DNA from: Alphaproteobacteria bacterium
GTDB taxonomy: Bacteria > Pseudomonadota > Alphaproteobacteria > UBA828
Length of the DNA stretch: 64,000 nucleotides
Assembly (NCBI GenBank): GCA_965214705.1
Contig: OZ243972.1
Coordinates: forward strand, 2,816,001 to 2,880,000
Reading direction: 5' to 3'
This document shows, one piece after another, positions 36,847-58,192 of this stretch. Both the position numbers and the translations under genes were made by a program. Below the pieces are notes generated by a model. That model was not told the DNA's origin. It saw only the letters and a program-made list of their open reading frames with translations, and did no database searches. The number at the start of each line of letters is the position of its first letter. The stretch's first letter is position 1.

Positions 36847-38520
36847 CCTAAATCCCGCAGTTGGTTTCGGGGCCGATCACGAAAAAGCCTTGTAGGCTAG
36901 GGGCATGAGCGAATCGAAACAGGCCCTTGAGGCTCACCCTGCGGGTGATGGTCCCAGCACTGCGCGGGAGCTCGCCCGAGAGGCCGTGAAGGTGGACACC
37001 TTCGGCGGCACCGTCCACGTCGAATGGGACCCGGATGCGGCGGCCACACCGCTGGGTCATCTGGTGTTCTTCGCCGAATACCTGAAAGTCAGCGGCCGCT
37101 TCGACGCGCTGGTGGCGGACTGCCCGCTGCACTACACGAGCCCGAACGCGCCCTCGAAGCGGGACGTGCTGGGGACGGTGATGCTGTCGGCCCTCGCAGG
37201 ACACTGGCGCTACGCGCACATCACGGCGCTGCGCGGCGACGGCGTCAATCCGTCGCTGTTGGGCATGACCAAGGTGGCGAGCGAGGACTCGGTTCGGCGC
37301 GGCCTGGGACGGATCGACGCGGAGGACGGCGCTTCCTGGCTGCACGGCCATCTCGACGACACGGCGCGGCCCTTGCTGAGCGAGCCGTGGGTTCTGGATT
37401 GCGACACAACGATCAAGCCGCTCTACGGCCACCAGGAGGGGGCTGTGGTGAGCTACAACCCGAAGAAGCCGGGCCGTCCGTCGCATGCCTACCATGCGTT
37501 CCTGATGGCGGGCACGCGCCTTGTTCTGGACGTCGATGTCGCGCCCGGGAACCGTCACCACTCGAAGAACGCGGCGCCTTCGCTGTGGGCCTTGCTCGAC
37601 CGCCTCGGCCGTGAGAACTGGCCGCGGCTCGTACGGGGCGACAAGGACTGGGGCAACGAGGGCAACATGGCGTCGTGCGAGGGGGCGGGTCTCGACTATC
37701 TGTTCAAGCTGCGCCTGACCAAGGGCGCGCGCCGGCTTGCCGAGTGCCTGATGACGCGGGACGAGTGGACGGACGCGGGCCCGGGCTGGTCGGGGATCGA
37801 GGCCGAGCTTCGCTTGCATGGCTGGAGCCGGACGCGTCGCGTGGTGGTGCTGCGCCGTCGGCTTCCCGGGACGGTGGCGCTGACGCGCGCAGACGACGGT
37901 CAGGGCGATCTCTTCTGGGCCGACGCGCAGCCTGGCACCAAGGTGTGGGAGTTTGCGGTTCTGGCGACGTCTCTGGATCTGGAGGTTCTCTCGATCGCCC
38001 AGCTCTACCGGGATCGGGCGGACGCGGAGAACGGCTTCGACGAGTTGAAGAACCAGTGGGGCTGGGGCGGCTTCACCACGCGAGACCTGAAGCGCTGCCA
38101 GCACATGGCCCGGCTGATCGCGCTCATTTACAATTGGTGGAGCCTGTTCGTGCGCTTGGCGGACCCCGATCACCACCGCGAGGCGATCACCAGCCGACCG
38201 CTCCTGCTGCATGGGGTTGCCCGCCAGACCCATCACGCCGGTCAAACCCGGCTGACGGTGACGTCGAGCCACGGGCGGCGGGGGGCCGTGGTCGCGGCGT
38301 TGCGGCGGATCACCGGCTTCTTCCAGACTCTGCTGACAAGTGCGGAGCAGTTGAGCGCTGAGGATCGCTGGCGCCGGATCCTGGCGGAAGCGCTGAAGAA
38401 GTACCTCCGGGGCCGCCAGCCGGGTCGCCAGCCCTGGATTCCACCGCCTCGGCCTGCGCTGGCAGGCTGAAATTGAGCCCGGAAATCGACCGATCATCGC
38501 CCCCAACTGCGGGATTTAGG
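36847..38520 (+). mobile_element. IS1380-family element
   Basis: 18-bp TIR CCTAAATCCCGCAGTTGG; 5-bp TSD TTAAA. Confidence 0.9.
36905..38470 (+). CDS. DDE transposase (IS1380-like)
   Basis: LDCDTTIKPLYGHQEGA..YNPKKPGRPSH, VRGD, YRDRADAENGFDELKNQWGW. Confidence 0.9.
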   Translation: MSESKQALEAHPAGDGPSTARELAREAVKVDTFGGTVHVEWDPDAAATPLGHLVFFAEYLKVSGRFDALVADCPLHYTSPNAPSKRDVLGTVMLSALAGHWRYAHITALRGDGVNPSLLGMTKVASEDSVRRGLGRIDAEDGASWLHGHLDDTARPLLSEPWVLDCDTTIKPLYGHQEGAVVSYNPKKPGRPSHAYHAFLMAGTRLVLDVDVAPGNRHHSKNAAPSLWALLDRLGRENWPRLVRGDKDWGNEGNMASCEGAGLDYLFKLRLTKGARRLAECLMTRDEWTDAGPGWSGIEAELRLHGWSRTRRVVVLRRRLPGTVALTRADDGQGDLFWADAQPGTKVWEFAVLATSLDLEVLSIAQLYRDRADAENGFDELKNQWGWGGFTTRDLKRCQHMARLIALIYNWWSLFVRLADPDHHREAITSRPLLLHGVARQTHHAGQTRLTVTSSHGRRGAVVAALRRITGFFQTLLTSAEQLSAEDRWRRILAEALKKYLRGRQPGRQPWIPPPRPALAG

Positions 38521-38853: not shown

Positions 38854-40311
38854 TCAGGCGAGTGGGAGCGTGGTGCCGTCGGGGCCGCGCGGGTCGATGG
38901 GCGTGCCGGCCGCGAGAGGAATCGCCTCCTCGATCGCGGCCGCCGCCCGCAGCACCGCTGCCTCGCCGCGCGGTGGGCCGAGGATCTGCAGGCCCACCGG
39001 CAGCCCCGCTTCGGTGAAGCCCACCGGCACCGAGGCGGAAGGACACGCGGTCAGCGTCAGCACGAAGGTGAGGCCCAGCCAATCCACGTAGTTGTCGAAG
39101 CGGTGGCCCTCGATCTCGTCGACCCAACGCGTGTCCACGTCGAAGGGCGGCACGATCACGCAGGGGCAGACCAGCACGTCGTGGCGGGCGAAGAAGCGCA
39201 CGCAGCGCTGGTATATCGCTCCGCGCGCTCGCTCGGCCCGCGCGATCTTGTCGGCGTCGAGCGCGAGTCCCTTCTCGATGTTCCAGACGATCTCGGGCTT
39301 GAGCGCGTCGCGGTGGGTCTCCAGTAGCTCGCCCTTGTCGGCGGCGAAGAGGGCGGCACGCAGCACCTGGAAGATATCGAGGGCGCCGGAGAGGTCGGGG
39401 CACGCCTCTGCGACCTCCATGCCCGCGCCGGCGAGCGTCTCCGCGGCGCCCTTGCAGACGGCGGCCACCTCGCGGTCCACCGGCAGCAGGCCCAGGTCCG
39501 GGCTGTAGGCGATGCGGCCGGGCGGCGGCAGCGATTCCAGCGCGTCGGCGAAGCCCTGCGCCGGGGCTTCGATGGAGAGCGGGTCCTCCGGGTGGGCGCC
39601 GCTCATCGCATCGAGCATGAGCGCGGCATCCCGCGCGTTGCGCGCCATGGGGCCGTCCACCATCAGCCCCTCGAAGGGCAGGCGCTTGGGCCCGTGGGCG
39701 ACGCGGCCCGGACTCGGCCGCATGCCGAAGACGCTGCAGAAGCTCGCGGGGATGCGCAGGCTTCCCCCTAAGTCCGAGCCCGTGGCGAGCCAGACCTGGC
39801 CGGTGGCCAACGCTGTCGACGAGCCGCCGGAGGAGCCGCCGCAGGTCTTGTCGGTGTTCCACGGGTTGCGGGTCTTGCCGAAGACCTCGTTGAAGGTGTT
39901 GGCGCCGGCGCCGAACTCGGGCGTGTTGGACTTGCCGATGACGATGGCGCCGCGCGCCTCCAGGGTCTCGACCGCGATGTCCGAGCGCGGCGGCACGTGG
40001 TCGGCGTAGATCGGCGAGCCCCAGGTGGTGCGCACGCCCTCGACCTCCACCAGGTCCTTGACCGCGATGGGCACACCGCCGAGCCAGCCGCGCGGGCGCT
40101 CGGTGCTGTGATCCTCCGCCATGATCCGCTCGGCGTGGGCCCGCGCCCTGTCGATGCAGAGCGTCGGAATGGCGTTGAGGTGGCCGTCGGTCGCCGCGAT
40201 CCGGTCTGCGCTCGCCTCCACCAGCTCCAGCGGCGAGACCTCGCGCCGCCGGAGCAGGTCGACGACCTCGGCCGCGGTCAGCCGGCAGAGATCGCCGCTG
40301 GCTGCTGCCAT
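38854..40311 (-). CDS. Amidase signature enzyme
   Basis: IAVKDL, GKSNTPEFG, TCGGSSGGS, GSDLGGSLRIPAS. Confidence 0.93.
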   Translation of the reverse strand: MAAASGDLCRLTAAEVVDLLRRREVSPLELVEASADRIAATDGHLNAIPTLCIDRARAHAERIMAEDHSTERPRGWLGGVPIAVKDLVEVEGVRTTWGSPIYADHVPPRSDIAVETLEARGAIVIGKSNTPEFGAGANTFNEVFGKTRNPWNTDKTCGGSSGGSSTALATGQVWLATGSDLGGSLRIPASFCSVFGMRPSPGRVAHGPKRLPFEGLMVDGPMARNARDAALMLDAMSGAHPEDPLSIEAPAQGFADALESLPPPGRIAYSPDLGLLPVDREVAAVCKGAAETLAGAGMEVAEACPDLSGALDIFQVLRAALFAADKGELLETHRDALKPEIVWNIEKGLALDADKIARAERARGAIYQRCVRFFARHDVLVCPCVIVPPFDVDTRWVDEIEGHRFDNYVDWLGLTFVLTLTACPSASVPVGFTEAGLPVGLQILGPPRGEAAVLRAAAAIEEAIPLAAGTPIDPRGPDGTTLPLA

Positions 40312-40325
40312 GCCGCCGTCCCCCT

Positions 40326-41723
40326 TCAGGCCGCAGGCGGCGTGCGGCTGTGCCAGTCGGTGTCCTGCTGGTAGGCGTGGCCGGCCTGCAGCAGCCGCTC
40401 CTCGCTGAGCTGCGGCCCCACGATCTGAAAACCGAGAGGCAAGCCGTCCTCGTCGAAGCCGCCGGGCAGGCACATCGCGGGCGTCCGTGCCATGTCGTGG
40501 GGGGCGGTGAACGAGATCAGCCGTTCGACCGAGCCTTCCTCGGCGCCCAACGTGTCCATGAAGGCGTTGGTGGGCGTCGGGTAGGGTTGCGAGGGAATGA
40601 TGATCGCGTCGACATCGGCGAAGACGGCATTGAGCGCGCCGACGAACTTGTCCCGCTCGATCACGATGCGCGCGTGGTCGACGCCGCTCAGCGCGAGCCC
40701 CACTTCGATCAGGCTGCTCAGCACCGGCCCGTAGTCGGCCTTGCGCTCGGCGTAGTAGGGCTCGTGCGCGATGGCCGTGTCCGCGCCGCAGAAATCGTTC
40801 CAGCGGTCGACCATGACCGTCGCATCGGGGAAGGCGATGGGCCGGATGTCGGCGCCGCGCCCGCGCAGCACGTCCGCCGCCTGCATGACCATGGCGGTCA
40901 CACGCGAATCCACCCCCTCCGAGCAATAAGCCTCGTCGAGGCCGATGCGCATGCCCTCGATGCCGGCGTCGATGCTGCCGAGGTAGTCCGGCACCGGCGC
41001 CTGCACGGTGGTCGGGTCGTCGGGGTCGACGCCGGCAATGACGCCGAGGATGGCGGCGCAGTCGGCCGCCGAGCGCGCCATCGGCCCGATGTGGTCGAGG
41101 GTCTCGGAGAGCGCGAAGGCGCCCGCCCGGCTCACCCGCCCCCAGGTGGGCTTGAGCCCGGTCACGCCGCAGGCTTGCGAGGGGAAGCGGATCGACCCGC
41201 CCGTATCCGTCCCCAGCGAGCCGTAGCAGAGCCGGGCCGTGGTGGCGACGCCGGAACCGCTCGACGAGACGCCGGTCCAGTAGTCAGGATGCCACGGGTT
41301 GACCGGCGGCGCGATGGTGGGGTGGTGCACCGCGTAGGCGCCCTCGGTCATCTGCAGCTTGCCGGCGAAGACCGTGCCGGCGTCACGCAGCCGCGCCACC
41401 ACGGTGCCGTCCACGCCGGGGCTCCAGTCGCGCAGCGCGACCGAGCCGACATGGGTCGGCGCATCCTTGGTCAGGCACAGGTCCTTGAGGCCGAAGGGAA
41501 CGCCGTGCAGCGGGCCCTTGACCGTGCCGCCCGCGATCTCCTGGTCCGCTTGCGCGGCCTGTTCGGTCGCGACATCGGCCATCACGGTGGCGTAGCTGCG
41601 GAGCGTGCCGTCCAGCCGCTCGATCCGCTCGAGCGTGTGTGCCGTCACCTCGGCAGCGGACACCTCCCGCGACTGAATTTTCGCCGCGACCTCGGTCAGC
41701 ATCAGCTCGTGCAGATCAGACAT
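40326..41723 (-). CDS. Amidase signature enzyme
   Basis: FGLKDL, WTGVSSSGSG, GTDTGGSIRFPS. Confidence 0.93.
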   Translation of the reverse strand: MSDLHELMLTEVAAKIQSREVSAAEVTAHTLERIERLDGTLRSYATVMADVATEQAAQADQEIAGGTVKGPLHGVPFGLKDLCLTKDAPTHVGSVALRDWSPGVDGTVVARLRDAGTVFAGKLQMTEGAYAVHHPTIAPPVNPWHPDYWTGVSSSGSGVATTARLCYGSLGTDTGGSIRFPSQACGVTGLKPTWGRVSRAGAFALSETLDHIGPMARSAADCAAILGVIAGVDPDDPTTVQAPVPDYLGSIDAGIEGMRIGLDEAYCSEGVDSRVTAMVMQAADVLRGRGADIRPIAFPDATVMVDRWNDFCGADTAIAHEPYYAERKADYGPVLSSLIEVGLALSGVDHARIVIERDKFVGALNAVFADVDAIIIPSQPYPTPTNAFMDTLGAEEGSVERLISFTAPHDMARTPAMCLPGGFDEDGLPLGFQIVGPQLSEERLLQAGHAYQQDTDWHSRTPPAA

Positions 41724-41869
41724 CCGAATCTCCCCTCTCCATGGTGGCGGCCGATTGAACGCCAAAGCCGCCGGCCACGCAAAGCCAATCTCTGCTTGCT
41801 GCGCGTGGCCGCAACGCTTAGCGATGACGCCGACACGCCTTGTCGTGCTGGTGGCATAATGGCGCAGCA

Positions 41870-42130
41870 ATGATGGTACGCACTCGGATCGCGCTGGACC
41901 CGGAACGGCATGCTCAGGCTCGTGCGCGTGCGGCCGCGCTCGGAATTTCGTTGGCCGAATATGTGCGCCGCCTCGTAGACCGTGACCTTGCCGAGCGGCC
42001 GAGCGGCGCCGATCGCTCCGTCGTCTTCGATCTCGGCCAGTCACGAGGCACCGATATCGCTTCGGAGAAGGCGCAGATGATCGGCGAGGCAACGGGAGCC
42101 GGAAAGCGCCGCCAAGCCGATACGCCGTGA
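41870..42130 (+). CDS. RHH antitoxin-like protein
   Basis: MVRTRIAL..ARAAALGISLAEYVRRLVDRDL; overlaps a GTG-STFVD stub resembling a PIN toxin start. Confidence 0.6.
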   Translation: MMVRTRIALDPERHAQARARAAALGISLAEYVRRLVDRDLAERPSGADRSVVFDLGQSRGTDIASEKAQMIGEATGAGKRRQADTP

Positions 42131-42255
42131 GCACTTTTGTCGACGGCGCCGCCATGCACGCAAAGCGAATCTCCTCTGCGCGTGGTGCGATTGCCCGGCC
42201 GGGCGGGCCATGATATCGACTGCGGCCCAAGTGCCGTGCGAGGGCGGGGGACATC

Positions 42256-42648
42256 ATGGCGGAGCGCTTCACAATGACCATCGACGGCCGCACGGTCGTT
42301 GCCGAACTGCTGGGTGGCAAGGCGCCCAACGTCGTCAAGGCGTTCACGGAAAGCCTGCCCTGCGACAGCTTCTCCGTGCACGCCAAGTTCGCGGGCGACG
42401 AGCTGATCGTGATGCTCCCGTTCTACTGCAACTCCGAGAACGAGATTCTCAACGTCAAGCCCGGCGACATCGGCTTTTATCCGGGGCGCCAGACCGCCTG
42501 CATTTTCTACGGCGACACCAAGCCGTTCGGAAAGGTCAGCGTGTTCGCGAAGATCGTGGAGGGCCTGGAGCACCTGAAGCCGGCGGGCAAGAAGATCCTC
42601 GCCAAGGGTCCGCTGCCGGTCCGGCTCGAACTCGTCGAGGGAGCGTAG
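42256..42648 (+). CDS. DUF3830 / cyclophilin-like fold protein (resembles the McbB/cucumopine synthase N-domain)
   Basis: VAELLGGKAPNVVKAF..LP..HAKFAGDEL, PGDIGFYP, IFYG. Confidence 0.75.
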   Translation: MAERFTMTIDGRTVVAELLGGKAPNVVKAFTESLPCDSFSVHAKFAGDELIVMLPFYCNSENEILNVKPGDIGFYPGRQTACIFYGDTKPFGKVSVFAKIVEGLEHLKPAGKKILAKGPLPVRLELVEGA

Positions 42649-42652
42649 CGCC

Positions 42653-43132
42653 ATGGCAGCAACCGAGACGACCGCGATCGTCGACCGGCTGGAGCGCTTC
42701 GGCCGGCGCAACTGGAAATCCGAGCCCGGTGACGTCACCCGGCTGCGCGCGCACAGCCTGCCCCCCATGGGCAACATGCCGCCCGTGCTCTACGCCAACT
42801 TCAACACCTTCTGGATGGGCGAGAACATCCAGGTCGTCCGTCAACTGGCGCTCGACAAGGCGTTGCCGCCGGCGGCGCTCAACGCCATGGCGGCGGCGCT
42901 GCTCAACCGCCACGCCGGGCGGCTGGCCAAGTGGAAGCTCACCGGCACGGTCAGGCTCGTGCGCGAGCTCGCCGCCTATTTCGAGGCGGGCGGCGCCAAG
43001 AGCCACGACGACGTGGTGCAGGTCTGCGAGGCGGCGATGGTCGCCTTCGACCGCATCAACGCCTGGATCGACGCGATGATCCCCTGGGCGCACCTCGACA
43101 AGAAGGTCAAGCTCCTGCCGGCGGCCGGTTGA
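42653..43132 (+). CDS. Helical-bundle protein resembling the cucumopine synthase/McbB C-terminal domain
   Basis: RRNWKSEPGDV and C-terminal DRINAWIDAMIPWAH match recalled McbB-type W..PP.EI and LNxWxxxxFPWxH patterns. Confidence 0.6.
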   Translation: MAATETTAIVDRLERFGRRNWKSEPGDVTRLRAHSLPPMGNMPPVLYANFNTFWMGENIQVVRQLALDKALPPAALNAMAAALLNRHAGRLAKWKLTGTVRLVRELAAYFEAGGAKSHDDVVQVCEAAMVAFDRINAWIDAMIPWAHLDKKVKLLPAAG

Positions 43133-43156
43133 CGGCGCCGCAGGCGAGCAAAACCC

Positions 43157-44062
43157 ATGTGCGGCCTCGGCGGCGTCTTCTTCAAGACCACGGAGCACCA
43201 TCGCCGGACCGGCGAGATCGCCTATCGCGTGCTGGACGGCATCTTCCGGCGCGGGCCGGATTCGACCGGGCTCGCCCTGGTCCAGCCGGCCATCGAGGAT
43301 CGCCTCTACGTCGGTATCAACTGCGAGGAGCCCGGCGGCGGTGGGCGGGCGCTCGCGCTGCTCGACGAGCTCGGCCGGGTCGAGCGCGCGACCGACGGCG
43401 AGGGCTTCATAAGGACCGCGATCCGCTACAGCGGCGACGATGAAGCGCTGGTGGACGCGGTCGATGCGTTGGGGCCCGCCTACACCGTCGCCAGCATCGG
43501 CCGCCACATCGAAGTGGTGAAGCACCTGGGGGGCGTCGAAACCCTCGAGGAGAATTTTGCGATCACGAATTACGACGGGCCGCTCGCCATGGGGCTCACC
43601 CGCTTCGCCACCGAGAGCATCATCGACTTCACCCACGGGCAGCCGCTGTCCGCCAGGCTGCACCGCGATCTCGCCATCATGCACAACGGCCACATCACGA
43701 ACTTCCACCATCTGCGCTATCACTTCGAGCGCGCGGGCTACACCTTCACCACCGGCAACGATTCCGAGGTGATCGCCGTCGCCATCGTCGATGAGATGGG
43801 GAAGGGCGCGAGCTTCCACGAGGCGCTGGAGCGCTCGGTGACGATCCTCGACGGCTGTTTCACCTACATCGCCGTCACCGCGGACGAGGTGGGCGTGGTC
43901 AAGGACCCCTACGCGGCCAAGCCGCTGGTGGTGGGCGAGACCGACCGGCTGGTGGCGGTCTCGTCCGATTGTTGGGCGCTACGCGACGGCATCGACGAGG
44001 ATATCGAGGTCTGGGAGCCTGGGGCCGGCGAGGTGGTGACGTGGCGAATTCCGCTGCACTGA
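43157..44062 (+). CDS. Class II glutamine amidotransferase-like protein (GlxB/MgsA-like)
   Basis: N-terminal MCG, RGPDSTG, TRFATES, MHNGHITN, TGNDSEV, LDGCFT. Confidence 0.88.
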   Translation: MCGLGGVFFKTTEHHRRTGEIAYRVLDGIFRRGPDSTGLALVQPAIEDRLYVGINCEEPGGGGRALALLDELGRVERATDGEGFIRTAIRYSGDDEALVDAVDALGPAYTVASIGRHIEVVKHLGGVETLEENFAITNYDGPLAMGLTRFATESIIDFTHGQPLSARLHRDLAIMHNGHITNFHHLRYHFERAGYTFTTGNDSEVIAVAIVDEMGKGASFHEALERSVTILDGCFTYIAVTADEVGVVKDPYAAKPLVVGETDRLVAVSSDCWALRDGIDEDIEVWEPGAGEVVTWRIPLH

Positions 44063-44745
44063 CCATCGACTGCGCCGGCCGGCCGACGCGCGCGATCAAC
44101 GAGGAGATTCGCCGCGCGGCGGACGACGGCGTGCCCCAGGTCGAACTGCTCAACCCGCAGGCGCGGCACAATCTCGGCGTCTCGGTCCTCAAGCCCATCC
44201 ACGTCGTCTACCGCGGCCACGTGGGCTCGTTTACCGCCGGGCTCTGCGACGGCATTACCGCGGAAGTCCACGGCACCTGCGGCTGGGGCGTGGCCGACAA
44301 CCTGATGAGCGGCGAGGTGGTCGTGCACGGCAACGCCGCCACCTCGGCGGCGCCCTCGATCCGCGGCGGGCGCGTCGTGGTGCGCGGCGATTCGGGGCCG
44401 CGCTCGGGCATGATCCTGAAGAAGGGCGAGCTCATCGTCGGCGGCAACACCGGCTACATGTCCGGCTTCATGATGCAGAACGGCCGCATGATCGTCTGCG
44501 GCGACGCCGACACCGGCCTCGGCGATTCCATGTATCAGGGCGTGATCTTCCTCGGCGGCAAGGCCAAGGAGCTGGGCTCCGGGCTGGAAGAGGTCGATGC
44601 CGAGAACGGCGAGCTCGACGATGTGGCGGCGCTGCTCGACCGCTTCGAGATCAAGGCGCCCCCAAAATTCCGCAAGCTGCAGTCGGACCGCAAGCTGTGG
44701 CACTTCAACAAGCATGACTTCGCGGCGTGGAAGGACGTGCTATGA
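44041..44745 (+). CDS. GXGXG-domain protein (GlxC/MgsB-like)
   Basis: NPQARHNLGV, GWGVADNLMSG, GLGDSMYQG, RKLWHF. Confidence 0.88.
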   Translation: MANSAALTIDCAGRPTRAINEEIRRAADDGVPQVELLNPQARHNLGVSVLKPIHVVYRGHVGSFTAGLCDGITAEVHGTCGWGVADNLMSGEVVVHGNAATSAAPSIRGGRVVVRGDSGPRSGMILKKGELIVGGNTGYMSGFMMQNGRMIVCGDADTGLGDSMYQGVIFLGGKAKELGSGLEEVDAENGELDDVAALLDRFEIKAPPKFRKLQSDRKLWHFNKHDFAAWKDVL

Positions 44746-46154
44746 GCGAGACCCCCGGCACACCGCCTCCGGCCCATGCGGGCGATTCCTCGGTCGAGGT
44801 TCTGGACGAGGCGGCACCGGCGCCCAACGGCGCCTATCCGCGGCCCGACAGCTTCAGCGGCGTCTGGCCGCCCGAGGTGATCGAGGAGATTCAGGAGAAG
44901 GCCGCGCTCGGCCGCTACCAGATCAGGGGCCAGGCGACCAAGCGGCGCGGCCTGCCCTCCTTCGACGATCTCGTGTTCGTGCCCGCCGGGCTCTCGCGCA
45001 TGCCGCTGGAAGGCTACCGGGAGAAGTGCGACACGCGCGTGGTGATCGGCGAGGGCAACTGCGAGAACCCGCTGGTGCTGGAGCGCCCGATCATGATCGC
45101 GGGCATGAGCTTCGGCGCGCTCTCGGTCCACGCCAAGCGGGCGCTCGGCACGGCGGCGAGCCGCTGCGGCATCTCCACCTGCACCGGCGAGGGCGGCATG
45201 CACCATGAGGAGCGCCGCTACTCCGACAAGCTGGTGATGCAGTACCTGCCGAGCCGCTACGGCATGAACCCCTACGACCTCAAGAAGGCCGACATGATCG
45301 AGATCGGCGCCGGGCAAGGCGCGAAGCCCGGCACCGGCGGCGTGCTGCTCGGGCTCAAGATGTCGGACGAGGTGGCGGAGATGCGCGACCTGCCCGAGGG
45401 CGTGGACCAGCGCAGCCCCTGCCGCCATCCCGACTGGATGGGCGCCGACGATCTCTACATGAAGCTGGAGGAGATCCGCGAGGTCACCGAGTACAAGGTG
45501 CCGATCTCGATCAAGGTCGGCGCCGCCAGGATCGCCAACGACGTCCGCATCGCGGCCAAGGCAGGCGTCGATGCCATCGTCTTCGACGGCATGGAGGGCG
45601 GCACCGCGGCCTCGCCCACGATCCAGCTCGACCACGCCGGCATTCCCACCGTCGCAGCCATCGCCGAAGCCTCCGAGGCGCTCGCCGAGATGGGCAAGAA
45701 GGACTCCATGAAGCTCATCGTCGGCGGCGGCATCCGCAACGGCGCGGACGCGGCGAAGTGCATCGCCCTCGGCGCCGACGTGGTCTACCTCGGCACCGCG
45801 CCGATCATCGCCATGGGCTGCCACAAGCCGATCTACCTGGAGGACTACGCCCGCCTCGGCACCTCGCCCTACGAGTGCCAGCACTGCCACACCGGTCTCT
45901 GCCCGGTCGGCATCACCACCCAGCTGCCCAAGCTGATGGAGCGCCTCGACGTGGACGAGGCGGCCGACAGCGTGACCAACTACCTCAACGCGCTCACCAT
46001 GGAGATCCAGCTCTTCGCCCGCGCCTGCGGCAAGAACCGGGTGAGCGATCTCGACCCCAACGACCTCCGCGCGCTGACCTACGACGTCTCGCTCATGACC
46101 GGCGTGGACATGGTTGGCCTCGGCGGCCGCACCCCCTGGTGGAAGAAGTTCTAA
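44742..46154 (+). CDS. FMN-binding glutamate-synthase-family protein (GlxD/MgsC-like)
   Basis: AGMSFGALS, TGEGG, GQGAKPGTGG, RHPDW, DGMEGGT, CQHCHTGLCPVGITTQ. Confidence 0.92.
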   Translation: MSETPGTPPPAHAGDSSVEVLDEAAPAPNGAYPRPDSFSGVWPPEVIEEIQEKAALGRYQIRGQATKRRGLPSFDDLVFVPAGLSRMPLEGYREKCDTRVVIGEGNCENPLVLERPIMIAGMSFGALSVHAKRALGTAASRCGISTCTGEGGMHHEERRYSDKLVMQYLPSRYGMNPYDLKKADMIEIGAGQGAKPGTGGVLLGLKMSDEVAEMRDLPEGVDQRSPCRHPDWMGADDLYMKLEEIREVTEYKVPISIKVGAARIANDVRIAAKAGVDAIVFDGMEGGTAASPTIQLDHAGIPTVAAIAEASEALAEMGKKDSMKLIVGGGIRNGADAAKCIALGADVVYLGTAPIIAMGCHKPIYLEDYARLGTSPYECQHCHTGLCPVGITTQLPKLMERLDVDEAADSVTNYLNALTMEIQLFARACGKNRVSDLDPNDLRALTYDVSLMTGVDMVGLGGRTPWWKKF

Positions 46155-46286
46155 GCGCCCCGATTAGGGCAAGCATCCCGCGAAAGTTCGTATGAAGTTG
46201 GCTTGGCGGGTCTATCCACCGACCCGACCATTCCCCCAACGCGACTATAAGGTTGATACACGAAGGCGTGTTGGCATTATTGGGGG

Positions 46287-46778
46287 ATGCGAAAGCATCT
46301 TCTCACTGCTTTTGGTATTGCCGTCGACGGACTCATCGCCGCGCTTTTCGGCTTGGAGGCGTTTGCAGTAGCAACAGCTGTGCTGGGCTTGGTATGCGCG
46401 TACGCATATCGGATCGAACTGCAGTCGACCTTTCGGTTTGTCCTGGGCAAATCGGGTCCGCCATGGGACGGCAAACATACCGCGCTCCAAAACCCGGGCG
46501 GCGGGATTCATATCGCGAAACTTCTCTCCAAAACAAAATGTCGCTCGGAGGCAGAAGATATTTTGGATATTTTCATCGACGCCCCGATCAAAGTAAACGA
46601 AGGGGCGGTCTATGCGGCATACGCGGCTGCGCTGGTTCGTTTCGGCGACCTTGTGAATGCGGGAGGAGTGTTAATCGCGGCGGATCGCAAAGAGGGTATG
46701 TCGAAAGAGGAACTCGATGCTTTCATGGATCGCTTCTACTACCCGAAGGAGCGGGGCGAGGAAGAACAAGATGTTTGA
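46287..46778 (+). CDS. Hypothetical membrane-anchored protein, AT-richer than its neighbours
   Basis: 163-aa ORF with a hydrophobic N-terminus; no recognised family. Confidence 0.5.
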   Translation: MRKHLLTAFGIAVDGLIAALFGLEAFAVATAVLGLVCAYAYRIELQSTFRFVLGKSGPPWDGKHTALQNPGGGIHIAKLLSKTKCRSEAEDILDIFIDAPIKVNEGAVYAAYAAALVRFGDLVNAGGVLIAADRKEGMSKEELDAFMDRFYYPKERGEEEQDV

Positions 46779-46841
46779 TTTGACGGAAGCAGAGGCATAG
46801 AGGCAGCCCGTGTGTAACTTTATGTTCGCGTTCCCTAATCT

Positions 46842-46934
46842 CGTCATGCCCGGACTTGATCCGGGCATCCGGGCATCCATATCGACCGGGTGCTGCGTCG
46901 CGACGTGGATGGCCGGGTCAAGCCCGGCCATGAC
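46842..46934. repeat. REP-like palindromic element
   Basis: Same arms as 38672, with an internal CCGGGCAT duplication. Confidence 0.85.
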
Positions 46935-47035
46935 AAGAAGGGGGCGAGAGTCGCTGCGCACCGCACAACGGTTGGCGTAGCCATGCGGTCTAATGTACTG
47001 AGTTCGCGTTCTTTTCTCTGCGCCGCTCCCCCTCT

Positions 47036-47130
47036 CGTCATGCCCGGACTTGATCCGGGCATCCATCTCTTTCAAGGGGTCCGTCGGAGTGTTGTGTGAA
47101 CACGTGGATGGCCGCAACACGGCCATGACG
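47036..47130. repeat. REP-like palindromic element (degenerate right arm)
   Basis: CGTCATGCCCGGACTTGATCCGGGCATCC...GGATGGCCG..CGGCCATGACG. Confidence 0.8.
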
Positions 47131-56546: not shown

Positions 56547-58192
56547 CCCGGATTTCTCACGAGCGTCCATCGTTGGGTTGTTTGGTGTTTGTCGTGGGTT
56601 TGGTTAGAGAGTTGCGGTGTGGGCCGGGTAATGGCGCAGGAGTGGCGGTGGCGCCGGGGGCGCGGTTGAGGCTGGAGCGGGTTTTTGGTTGTTGGCGGGA
56701 GGGTGGCAGCGGGCCTGAGGCTCGGCTCAGGTGCATAATCGGGCGTGAGCACGTGCGAACTCGGGCGCGTGGGGTGCGCCTGAGGCCATGGCGATGCGGA
56801 TGCGGCGGGTACTCAGGCGGACCTGGGCGCCGATCTTCAGCAGCTTGAGGCGGATCGAGCCGCAGGTAGCGCGGGTAAGGCGAGTTCCGGCGAGCGCGAT
56901 GCGCCTGAGCGCTGCGAGCAGCACGTAGGCCATGGCGGCGAACCAGAGACGGAGCTGGTTGGCGCGCATGGTCTGAGCCGAGGTGCGGTCGGCGAAGAGG
57001 TCGAGCTGGCACTCCTTGATGCGGTTCTCCATGTCGCCGCGGGCGCAGTAGAGGGTCTCGTAGAGTTCCCGCCGGTCGATGGCGGCCGCGCTCAGCGAGG
57101 TGACGACGAAGCGGGGGTTGGCGCGGCCCGGCATCCACTCCGCCTTGCCGACGACACGGCGCGGGCGCGACCAAGTCTTGCACGTGCGGTAGCGGAACTC
57201 GGTGAACAGCCGCGCCGGCTGGCCGCTCTCCCGCGAGCGGGCTTCGGCCAGGTCCAGGGCCGGTTGCAGGCGGTCCGTGAGCCGCGGGTTCCGGGCGAGC
57301 CCGAAGACATAGTCCACCCCGTTCGCCTCGCACCAGGCCATCAGTCCCTCGCGGGCGAAGCCAGAGTCTGCGCGCAGCACGATCTCGACGGCGGGCCAGC
57401 GGGCGCGGATGCGCGCGACGATGCGCGCCACCTCTTCGGCCGCGCCGGCGCTGGCGTCGATGTCGGCCCGCCTCAGCTTGGCGGCCAGCAGGTGATCGCC
57501 GCAGAAGATGTAGAGCGGCAGGTAGCAGTAGCAGTCGTAGTAGCCGTGGAAGAAGCGGCCTTCCTGATGGCCGTGCAGCGGGTCGTCGGTGGCGTCCAGA
57601 TCGAGGACCAACCGCTCAGGGGCCTGCCCGTGGGCGTCGAGGAAGAGATCGACGAAGAGCGTCTCGATCGCCTCAGGCTCATGACCGATCCGGCGATAGC
57701 GATGGGCGCCCGAAGGCGCGTGCTCCAGCCGGTTCAGCGTCGACTTGCCCGCAAGCGGCGCACAGCCCGCACGCCCGGCCTCCAAACGCCCCAGCACCAC
57801 CCCCAGCACGGGGTCGTGGCGCAGCGCGTCGTGGTCGATCAAGTCCTCGTAGCCCAGCGCGATCCCGAACACCCGCTGGCCCACCAGGGTGGCAACGTCG
57901 TGCACCACACGAGAGGCCGCGCGCCCGTCCGAGAAGCAGGCGGCGAAGCAATCCACCAGTCCGATCGCCCGGTCCGTGGCGCCCAGCAGCAGGGCGCCCG
58001 CGTCCGAGGTCATCACCCCGCCGCCGAAGTCGGCCACCACATCACGCCCGTTCAGGCGTGCAAACTGCATCGCGGGCGGGCTACACTCTGCAGGCATCGG
58101 GGAACTCCTCTGCAGCCGGTGAAGTCTTTGTTGCAGAAGAACTTTCTCACGAGCAGAGCCCCGATGCACACCATACTTGTGAGAAATCCGGG
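56547..58192 (-). mobile_element. IS1380-family element
   Basis: TIR CCCGGATTTCTCAC at both ends; flanks CTAG and CTGC do not match. Confidence 0.88.
56727..58097 (-). CDS. IS1380-family transposase
   Basis: FGGGVMTSDAG, LDLDATDDPLHGHQEG, LRADSGF, YCARGDMENRIKE. Confidence 0.95.
   Translation of the reverse strand: MPAECSPPAMQFARLNGRDVVADFGGGVMTSDAGALLLGATDRAIGLVDCFAACFSDGRAASRVVHDVATLVGQRVFGIALGYEDLIDHDALRHDPVLGVVLGRLEAGRAGCAPLAGKSTLNRLEHAPSGAHRYRRIGHEPEAIETLFVDLFLDAHGQAPERLVLDLDATDDPLHGHQEGRFFHGYYDCYCYLPLYIFCGDHLLAAKLRRADIDASAGAAEEVARIVARIRARWPAVEIVLRADSGFAREGLMAWCEANGVDYVFGLARNPRLTDRLQPALDLAEARSRESGQPARLFTEFRYRTCKTWSRPRRVVGKAEWMPGRANPRFVVTSLSAAAIDRRELYETLYCARGDMENRIKECQLDLFADRTSAQTMRANQLRLWFAAMAYVLLAALRRIALAGTRLTRATCGSIRLKLLKIGAQVRLSTRRIRIAMASGAPHAPEFARAHARLCT

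Follow-up and report, generated by a model that had tools for sequence, protein, structure and literature searches.

A split McbB-fold module linked to GlxBCD-type genes in Alphaproteobacteria and Chloroflexota

To our knowledge, the McbB fold has so far been seen only in a few Pictet-Spengler enzymes, whose products are beta-carbolines and opines. GlxBCD, or MgsABC, is the N-methylglutamate synthase of the N-methylglutamate pathway of methylamine use, and the Puu and Pau routes of polyamine gamma-glutamylation employ a glutamine synthetase (GS)-like ligase, a DAO-type oxidase, an aldehyde dehydrogenase and a hydrolase of the class-I amidotransferase type. Here we describe a five-gene operon in a 64,000-nt stretch of an alphaproteobacterial genome (the window; GenBank GCA_965214705.1, contig OZ243972.1, positions 2,816,001 to 2,880,000), in which two small genes, ORF1 and ORF2, together encode an McbB-fold module and are followed by the genes of a GlxBCD-like enzyme set. 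The host genome (G000) comprises 7.92 Mb in 3 contigs and is 98.5% complete with 8.7% contamination. We found that the module belongs to a separate McbB-fold clade that is rare yet spans phyla, has lost the Pictet-Spengler residues, has a predicted, conserved basic pocket and is tied to a glutamate-synthase-like set that uses flavin mononucleotide (FMN). At roughly even odds (about 0.5), this non-Pictet-Spengler module handles an imine or iminium step in a gamma-glutamyl or N-alkylglutamate amine pathway.

Structure of the ORF1-ORF2 module

The genes ORF1, ORF2, GlxB, GlxC and GlxD are closely packed and translationally coupled at 42256-46154 on the plus strand (Table 1), with 4 nt between ORF1 and ORF2 and 24 nt between ORF2 and GlxB. 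GlxC most likely starts at the GTG at 44041, judging from where its relatives begin to align (about 235 aa), which gives it a 22-nt overlap with GlxB; the likely start of GlxD is the ATG at 44742, in an ATGA overlap with the GlxC stop, with the longest open reading frame running from GTG 44727. ORF1 scores above the gathering cut-offs of PF12903 and PF04126 (48.5 bits against 26 for DUF3830 and 42.6 against 27 for the other; DUF3830 E 1.1e-12, Cyclophil_like 6.6e-11), and it also matches Cyclophil_like2 (E 3.3e-6; 27.6 bits against a cut-off of 22.7). ORF2, which ends in ...DRINAWIDAMIPWAHLDKKVKLLPAAG, matched no Pfam family at E<=1, Cucumopine_C included, and its 64 close homologues (52-94% identity) are all unnamed or hypothetical proteins. 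NCBIfam gave no match for ORF1 or ORF2 and no specific model for GlxB, GlxC or GlxD.

The AlphaFold2 model of ORF2, built from its family alignment (A1), is all-helical with a mean predicted local distance difference test score (pLDDT) of 91.9. When it was compared with known structures by VIA-align, the model matched the C-terminal half of McbB (3x27_D, residues 155-311) over 151 residues at Z 17.5 and a root-mean-square deviation (rmsd) of 2.6 A, and seven KslB entries on residues 2-148 at Z 15.3-15.9, against Z 11.4 over 102 residues for the best unrelated fold, the CheA phosphotransfer domain. In a Foldseek comparison with the PDB, all of the matches listed down to rank 16 were KslB or McbB, and the first other protein stood at rank 34 (E 0.26). 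By sequence, the ORF2-family profile matched only hemolysin E in the PDB, at chance level (E ~0.7), and ORF1 matched TM1367 (6e-7) and 3kop (4e-6). The barrel fold of ORF1 is taken from Pfam and from its 47% identity to the modelled fused homologue described below.

An exhaustive profile search with alignment A1 collected 125 representatives at E<=1e-3, many of which are proteins of 285-333 aa with the ORF2-like part at the C-terminus. Eight of ten such long homologues tested have an N-terminal DUF3830 or Cyclophil_like domain, two of ten match Cucumopine_C below the cut-off (E 0.028 and 0.039), and all 11 longer relatives of ORF1 are likewise fused forms (291-333 aa); fused genes occur in 6 Chloroflexota loci and 1 Desulfobacteraceae locus, and one fused homologue carries the label Ktedonobacteraceae. 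Profiles of the fused family cover McbB from end to end (E 2e-16 and 5e-18); KslB-type chains are matched in two stretches of permuted order (E ~1e-14). According to the KslB paper (PMC12012969), KslB has its helical domain first and its barrel second, the reverse of McbB. One natural fused homologue (L051:8515-9399), 47% identical to ORF1 and 45% to ORF2, gave a model (pLDDT 91.4; predicted template modelling score 0.90) that aligns with whole McbB over 287 of 295 residues at Z 30.3 and rmsd 2.6 A, and also with 3kop (Z 18.6) and TM1367 (Z 17.7). Fold, homology and fused forms are strong evidence that ORF1 and ORF2 together make up one McbB-like unit, and since homologues are fused, the two chains presumably associate as a heteromeric enzyme. 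This agrees with the preliminary description of the locus, made from the letters of the window alone, which had called ORF1 DUF3830/cyclophilin-like and ORF2 helical and had taken them for the split halves of an McbB-type protein; a lack of structural similarity between ORF2 and the McbB C-domain had been named there as a point that would refute the idea. Of the comparisons of both ORFs with McbB and Cucumopine_C that it had proposed, that of ORF2 with McbB succeeded by VIA-align, but Foldseek gave nothing at E<=0.001 and ORF2 did not match Cucumopine_C. A complex prediction of GlxC, GlxD and the L051 fused module scored 0.00 against a mark of 0.32, without controls, and weighs neither way.

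The helical family shows some variation in length. Many alphaproteobacterial homologues of ORF2 (P0050, P0051, P0053-P0056 and others) have N-terminal tails of 20-80 residues rich in Lys, Ala, Pro and Arg, and for two homologues (P0034 and P0056) a precomputed match to PF07382 exists; ORF2 of the window has no such tail. In five variants (P0066, P0067, P0068, P0072 and P0073) the barrel is either encoded separately or cannot be seen; their additional N-terminal region matches no Pfam family and contains a conserved ..TPLARD.. motif. P0066 and P0067 also have Cys-rich C-terminal extensions ending in an amphipathic helix.

Contigs from RNA libraries were found on the operon in 4 runs from four studies; at 88-99% likeness to the window they are sequences of relatives. 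One of 921 nt covers 42289-43113 and bridges the ORF1-ORF2 junction, and GlxB, GlxC and GlxD are spanned by two others, 1216 and 1115 nt long. They record presence in an RNA library, a hint of expression, and do not prove a single transcript; the bins 41857-42013 and 46253-46400, which had no cover in the 4 runs, were not used as evidence. A promoter and terminator scan of 41600-47100 found nothing above the shuffled expectation.

The active site

The residue numbers of KslB chain 9ns6 follow the published ones, so hidden Markov model (HMM) alignments of ORF1 and ORF2 could be mapped on it residue by residue. In the KslB paper (PMC12012969), E274Q is reported to be inactive, E274 to correspond to McbB E97, and the carboxylates of 2-oxoglutarate to be held by R256 and K264. 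Three independent alignments place McbB YGPLTE and KslB YGPTTE against YGDTKP in ORF1, so that the catalytic base E274 falls on P90, a residue invariant in 33 homologues; the loss of this Glu had been read correctly from the window alone. The two 2-oxoglutarate ligands R256 and K264 fall on ORF1 G73 and T80, while S225, which donates a hydrogen bond to the product alpha-nitrogen, Y230, which binds the Trp carboxylate, and T273, which together with Y92 of the partner shuts the active site, fall on A46, I51 and K89, respectively. On the helical side, F89 (indole stacking), Y92 (the gate, from the dimer partner) and N93 (near the active site, with mutation having no effect) correspond to ORF2 R90, K93 and W94. 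At modest alignment confidence, the 2-oxoglutarate ligands and indole-pocket residues of KslB are thus not kept in either chain.

What is kept instead is a different set of residues. ORF1 has 25 invariant residues in the 33 homologues, including K44, E49, E61, D71, Q79, T80, C82 and P90, and ORF2 has 45 invariant positions in 29 sequences, including R86, H87, R90, K93 and W94 and the motif D133-R134-x-N136-x-W138-I139-D140...P144-W145. By this mapping the pocket carries the invariant basic residues R86, H87, R90 and K93 of ORF2 and K44 of ORF1, and the replacements together with this invariance indicate that an aromatic pocket with a Glu base became a strongly conserved basic one. With its general-base Glu replaced, as well as the residues that bind 2-oxoglutarate and indole, the module does not have the active site of a Pictet-Spenglerase and on this ground is not one.

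Linkage to GlxBCD and gene neighbourhoods

ORF2 is present in 23 of 41 related genomes, including 18 of 20 of the same genus besides G000, 2 of 4 from other genera of the family and 2 of 5 from the sister family. Fourteen loci were retrieved from relatives, with ORF2 identity as low as 56%, and in every one the genes follow the window order ORF1-ORF2-GlxB-GlxC-GlxD; because both genes and order recur in 14/14 loci, the arrangement of the five genes noticed in the window is not due to chance. From species-representative genomes we obtained 35 loci, all in metagenome-assembled genomes and mostly labelled Alphaproteobacteria, Rhodospirillales, Dehalococcoidia or SAR202. In nearly all of these (34 of 35) the pair, split or fused, is the immediate neighbour of Glx genes, across two phyla (with loci from Alphaproteobacteria and from Chloroflexota) and in three gene orders; absence of such co-occurrence with glxBCD in other genomes was the other point that the preliminary description had named as refuting it. 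Six SAR202/Dehalococcoidia loci, flanked by housekeeping genes, run in the order PTE-type hydrolase, GS gene, MFS gene (on the other strand), GlxB, GlxC, GlxD and fused module, and the third arrangement, from another Chloroflexota clade, runs GlxB-GlxC-GlxD-x-DAO-ORF1-ORF2-GS with split genes. GlxBCD also lies beside the pair in four of 6 further Chloroflexota loci, the contigs of the remaining two ending early. By profile, the helical family was found in 4 of 151 genomes of the class, 3 of 301 Chloroflexota and 1 of 301 Desulfobacterota. The module forms a constant part of a gene set that is shared horizontally and also includes a GS-family ligase and GlxBCD, often with a DAO and an amide hydrolase as well.

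GlxBCD is encoded as three separate subunits, a class-II amidotransferase with Cys1, a GXGXG beta-helix protein and an FMN-binding Glu_synthase domain. GlxB of the window begins MCGLGG, with Cys directly after Met1, so that this Cys becomes residue 1 once Met is removed; the MCG start is also seen in L051. The McbB-linked GlxDs of the window and of Chloroflexota are 61-63% identical, against 52% and 42-44% between the window GlxD and the paralogues in the second and third GlxBCD clusters of G000. Unlinked GlxDs in 25 other genomes of the class, from the 151-genome sample, have 50-58% identity to it, and the GlxD of one genome of the same family, which does have the pair beside it, has 92%. In the GlxD tree, whose base is unresolved, the linked GlxDs fall into three short-branched, well-supported clades, with the G000 paralogues outside on long branches. 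Judged by these comparisons, the McbB-linked GlxDs are a distinct group of their own. Four Cys residues at about 45850-45960 in GlxD, including C-x2-C-x4-C-P-V-G-I-T-T-Q, are invariant in 15 orthologues (alignment A4); glutamate synthase has its 3Fe-4S binding site in this region, and GlxD may thus carry an Fe-S centre.

The two further GlxBCD-type clusters of G000 are at C1:2377492-2382126 (L061) and C3:1850081-1852905 (L062). One consists of DAO, GS-like, GlxB, GlxC and GlxD genes followed by a gene for 130 aa, which was considered as a relative of ORF1 or ORF2 and proved unrelated (hhalign probability 0.1-0.2); the DMFase-like gene of L042 has an orthologue (68% identity) about 11 kb upstream of this cluster. 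The other consists of GlxB, a fused GlxC-GlxD, a GltD-like Fe-S/FAD protein, LarA and an aldehyde:ferredoxin oxidoreductase. We found no SoxD-type gene at any of the three GlxBCD clusters of G000, the two detected being at C1:753854 and C1:525075.

The preliminary description had remarked on the absence of gmaS and mgd genes. Beside the operon of the window there is indeed no GS-family or SoxD-type gene, and none of the annotated loci has an mgd-like set of four genes, but a GS-family gene (Gln-synt_C) does belong with the module, adjoining it in 12 of 35 loci. Its orthologue in G000 (62.5% identity) is at C1:1000426-1001754, 1.86 Mb from the operon, flanked by a 2OG-Fe(II) oxygenase and an LLM-class oxidoreductase, and in L011 a luciferase-like gene also follows the GS gene. 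These GS proteins score below the cut-off of every named NCBIfam model, with 244-273 bits for the cluster type and 250 bits for the orthologue against the cut-off of 469.6 of the GmaS/type-III GS model TIGR03105, and 236 bits against 650 for gamma-glutamylputrescine synthetase; the GlnA cut-off is not reached either.

The other neighbours vary with lineage. The divergent amidases, which had been suggested as a possible feed for the pathway, do adjoin the operon of the window, but such an amidase pair occurs in only 12 of 35 loci, all of the same genus or near relatives, and other lineages carry different hydrolases; taken over all loci, the neighbouring hydrolases include amidase-signature amidases and PTE, Amidohydro_3 and S15 peptidase types. 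A DMFase-like large subunit (DMFA2_C, E 1e-97), of a kind whose known relatives release a methylated amine, is encoded together with a small protein in four loci (L011, L042, L043 and L046); G000 itself has six paralogues of this large subunit. A DAO flavoenzyme was found in four loci of the subset examined (L014, L047, L048 and L049; L014 and L049 share one contig, as do L013 and L047) and matches to one in five of the 6 Chloroflexota loci fetched in addition, where one match is just a 132-nt fragment; in the third arrangement it lies directly before ORF1. L047 also has a class-I GATase/Peptidase_C26 gene after GlxD, and L068 has three APC permeases.

In one Chloroflexota genome (G552, locus L069) the helical subunit is a protein of 308 aa (P0068, L069:7110-8036) extended at the N-terminus by about 150 residues, the first of which form an amphipathic helix that may resemble microcompartment encapsulation peptides. 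Directly after it come genes for a tandem bacterial microcompartment (BMC) shell protein, an aldehyde dehydrogenase, a 180-aa protein that shares the N-terminal region of P0068 (31% identity, E 4.5e-4) and two EutN/CcmL proteins, and the BMC-domain matches of G552 are confined to this neighbourhood. There are no BMC shell genes in the window, and tblastn found no match to the BMC proteins in G000. The DAO neighbour and the aldehyde dehydrogenase and microcompartment of G552 suggest an aldehyde output in at least some lineages, and the acylating type of that dehydrogenase, with the BMC, would fit an aldehyde of two or more carbons better than formaldehyde.

Around the operon of the window (Table 1), amidase A is best matched by PRK07486 among NCBIfam models, at 419 bits against a cut-off of 465, and amidase B is below all cut-offs; tblastn with either gave more than 40 amidase-signature matches in G000. 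The small ORF between amidase B and ORF1 has homologues only in some loci of the same genus (L020, L024, L025, L032, L033 and L036), and this patchiness points to an insertion or a variable regulator. Downstream of the operon are an asparaginase (minus strand), a dioxygenase and an amidohydrolase. Genes for DDE_Tnp_1_4-type transposases at 36905-38470 (+) and 56727-58169 (-) flank an 18-kb segment holding the amidases, the operon, the asparaginase, the dioxygenase, the amidohydrolase, a beta-eliminating lyase and a PhyH dioxygenase, and the GC content falls to 0.58-0.60 at 36-37 kb and 46-47 kb of the window. Directly after GlxD, in the second of these low-GC stretches, an ORF of 176 aa without a Pfam family (46253-46783) begins at the sole promoter-like site of the scan. 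A second DUF3830 gene of G000 (C1:3825465-3825860, minus strand; 46.1 bits, open frame of 231 aa) is about 5 kb from an amidase paralogue at C1:3831214.

Table 1. Features of the operon and its upstream neighbours, in window coordinates
Feature	Position	Strand	Length	Basis
Amidase A, amidase-signature	38854..40266	-		Pfam Amidase, E 7.5e-100
Amidase B, amidase-signature, divergent from the operon	40326..41723	-		Pfam Amidase, E 2.2e-94
Small ORF between amidase B and ORF1	41870..42130	+	~86 aa	No Pfam family; ribbon-helix-helix-like by eye
ORF1, DUF3830 cyclophilin-like beta-barrel half of the McbB-fold module	42256..42648	+	130 aa	Pfam
ORF2, helical-bundle half of the McbB-fold module	42653..43132	+	159 aa	No Pfam family; AlphaFold2 model
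GlxB-like class-II (Ntn) amidotransferase subunit	43157..44062	+		Pfam GATase_6, GATase_7; syntenic in all loci
GlxC-like GXGXG beta-helix subunit	44041..44745	+		Pfam GXGXG, E 1.2e-11
GlxD-like FMN-binding Glu_synthase subunit	44742..46154	+		Pfam Glu_synthase, E 4.6e-98

Possible function and comparison with known systems

In the pathway that we favour, an amine freed by a hydrolase would be gamma-glutamylated by the GS-family enzyme, and GlxBCD would pass it onto a glutamate or 2-oxoglutarate skeleton as an N-substituted (imino)glutamate. The McbB-fold module would bind an anionic ligand of amino-acid type, such as glutamate, 2-oxoglutarate or an N-substituted derivative, and would form, exchange or hydrolyse a C=N bond, that is, carry out the first half of Pictet-Spengler chemistry without ring closure, with glutamate and an aldehyde or a transferred amine as the products. 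We infer the association of ORF1 with ORF2, the class of substrate, the C=N chemistry and the order of the steps, and the chemistry might be described as opine-like. A bolder version, which we consider unlikely, would make the module the signature enzyme of an unrecognised amine-to-aldehyde route independent of pyridoxal phosphate, in which GS and GlxBCD load the amine, the module resolves an N-alkyl(idene)glutamate iminium and a microcompartment encloses the route in some Chloroflexota; the Pictet-Spenglerases would then be an offshoot of an older iminium-handling family.

Several observations weigh against an imine-handling module bound to this gene set. Foldseek, with a best E-value of 3.7e-3, and the Pfam comparison of ORF2 alone with Cucumopine_C (E<=1) fell short of the relationship seen by VIA-align, and an ORF1-only profile reaches KslB at E 0.48, so the residue mapping rests on low-scoring HMM alignments and individual equivalences are somewhat uncertain. 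The linkage itself has an exception in a Desulfobacteraceae locus (L058, 30% identity), where a fused form without Glx genes lies next to an Amidohydro_3 gene. Among 151 genomes of the class, 27 have GlxD at >=50% identity, and since the pair is adjacent in only 2 of them, GlxBCD of the canonical type evidently works without the module. Distant members of the helical family in two genomes (G809 and G730) are on contigs other than those of their GlxD; one is of the fused type (L088, G809:C41), another is a barrel and helix pair (L089, G730:C31), and a third (L090) is on the same contig as the second. Their surroundings contained no Glx, GS, DAO or hydrolase gene when compared with our own query set, which suggests that the wider family is not restricted to GlxBCD clusters. 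DAO, hydrolase, GS and BMC genes are not universal neighbours; the operon of the window has none of GS, DAO and BMC next to it, and BMC genes were present in one of five genomes searched, with none in G663, whose helical subunit has the same extension as that of G552.

The loss of every mapped catalytic and binding residue of the Pictet-Spenglerases would also be expected if the pair were a non-catalytic structural, assembly or regulatory subunit of GlxBCD, for example an amine-tunnel gate or a metabolite sensor, and so would the tight coupling, with 4-24 nt spacers and overlaps, and the strict co-inheritance with GlxBCD. We regard this as doubtful, though the best placed of the alternatives, given the many invariant polar and charged residues at positions lining the KslB active site, which are more typical of a ligand site, the fused forms with no Glx gene nearby (L058 and L088), and the finding of no fusion to any Glx subunit among the 125 representatives or the 11 longer forms. 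A genuine divergent Pictet-Spenglerase or opine synthase, which would join an aromatic amino acid to 2-oxoglutarate from GlxBCD in a biosynthetic role, is very improbable. It would share the fold and the detectable homology with McbB, KslB and cucumopine synthase, and the known enzymes of the family use 2-oxoglutarate or related carbonyls (PMC12012969), but an invariant Pro stands in place of the catalytic Glu, neither the 2-oxoglutarate ligands nor the indole-stacking Phe and Tyr are retained, and the surrounding genes encode transporters, hydrolases, a GS-family ligase and DAO but no tailoring or biosynthetic enzymes.

Overlapping in mechanism with the imine-handling module that we prefer is a variant N-methylglutamate pathway for methylamine, in which the GS would be GmaS, GlxBCD would be N-methylglutamate synthase and the pair (with DAO where present) would replace accessory functions of MgdABCD by handling the formaldehyde or iminium product. 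The subunit composition equals that of MgsABC, and the adjacent GS-family gene in 12 of 35 loci, the lack of a SoxD-type gene at the three GlxBCD clusters of G000, the DAO flavoenzyme beside the pair in several loci and the DMFase-like genes near 4 loci all fit this proposal. We nevertheless consider methylamine a rather unlikely answer, as the GS orthologue is below the TIGR03105 cut-off and matches no named equivalog, the GlxD group is distinct from the common type of 50-58% identity, the hydrolases nearby are of several types, and a longer aldehyde than formaldehyde would better suit the aldehyde dehydrogenase and BMC of G552.

No paper on DUF3830, and none connecting cucumopine synthase with glutamate synthase, came up in a literature search; the glxBCD papers found were, by title, on other subjects, and none was found on BMCs with glutamine synthetase in Chloroflexi. 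The main text of a BMC catalogue (PMC8217296), whose locus types are given in its supplements, does not mention glutamine synthetase, glutamate synthase, cyclophilin, amidotransferase or amine. The parts of the system are of known kinds, and the clade, its altered active site, the split form and the fixed partnership with GlxBCD appear to be undescribed. If the module does act on an imine or iminium, it would supply a missing step in gamma-glutamyl/N-alkylglutamate amine catabolism of uncultured marine Alphaproteobacteria and SAR202, an evolutionary origin for the Pictet-Spenglerases and a new scaffold for C=N biocatalysis, and the single microcompartment-linked variant (G552) would be a new type of metabolosome.

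Among described systems, TM1367, AF2241 and 3KOP (PF04126, DUF3830; function unknown) are closest to ORF1 in sequence and share its GD..Y.P...C.F.G...P core. These are stand-alone barrels with no described helical partner, whereas ORF1 has an obligate one and also carries the AKFAG.E and RQT motifs specific to its family. The enzyme classes of the Puu and Pau routes, namely GS-family ligase, DAO, aldehyde dehydrogenase and class-I GATase/Peptidase_C26, recur around the module, where they are not universal, while those routes have no GlxBCD or McbB-fold protein. MgsABC with GmaS is alike in domain composition, having the same three subunit domains and a GS-family ligase clustered with them in many genomes; clusters of the window type differ from that pathway in the extra McbB-fold module, in having no adjacent genes of the mgdABCD type and in a GS that falls below the named models. 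Closest to the module as a whole are McbB (PDB 3X27), KslB/AsKslB (9NS6, 9K0A and 9UWA) and cucumopine synthase, which have the same architecture of a barrel and a helical bundle. Domain order within the McbB/KslB family was already known to be permutable (PMC12012969). McbB and KslB are single chains and biosynthetic, making alkaloids or opines, whereas the window module consists of two polypeptides in a catabolic context; they are homologous to the module family at the profile level (E 5e-18), and the C-terminal ...W-x-D...P-W motif of the helical domain is common to both.

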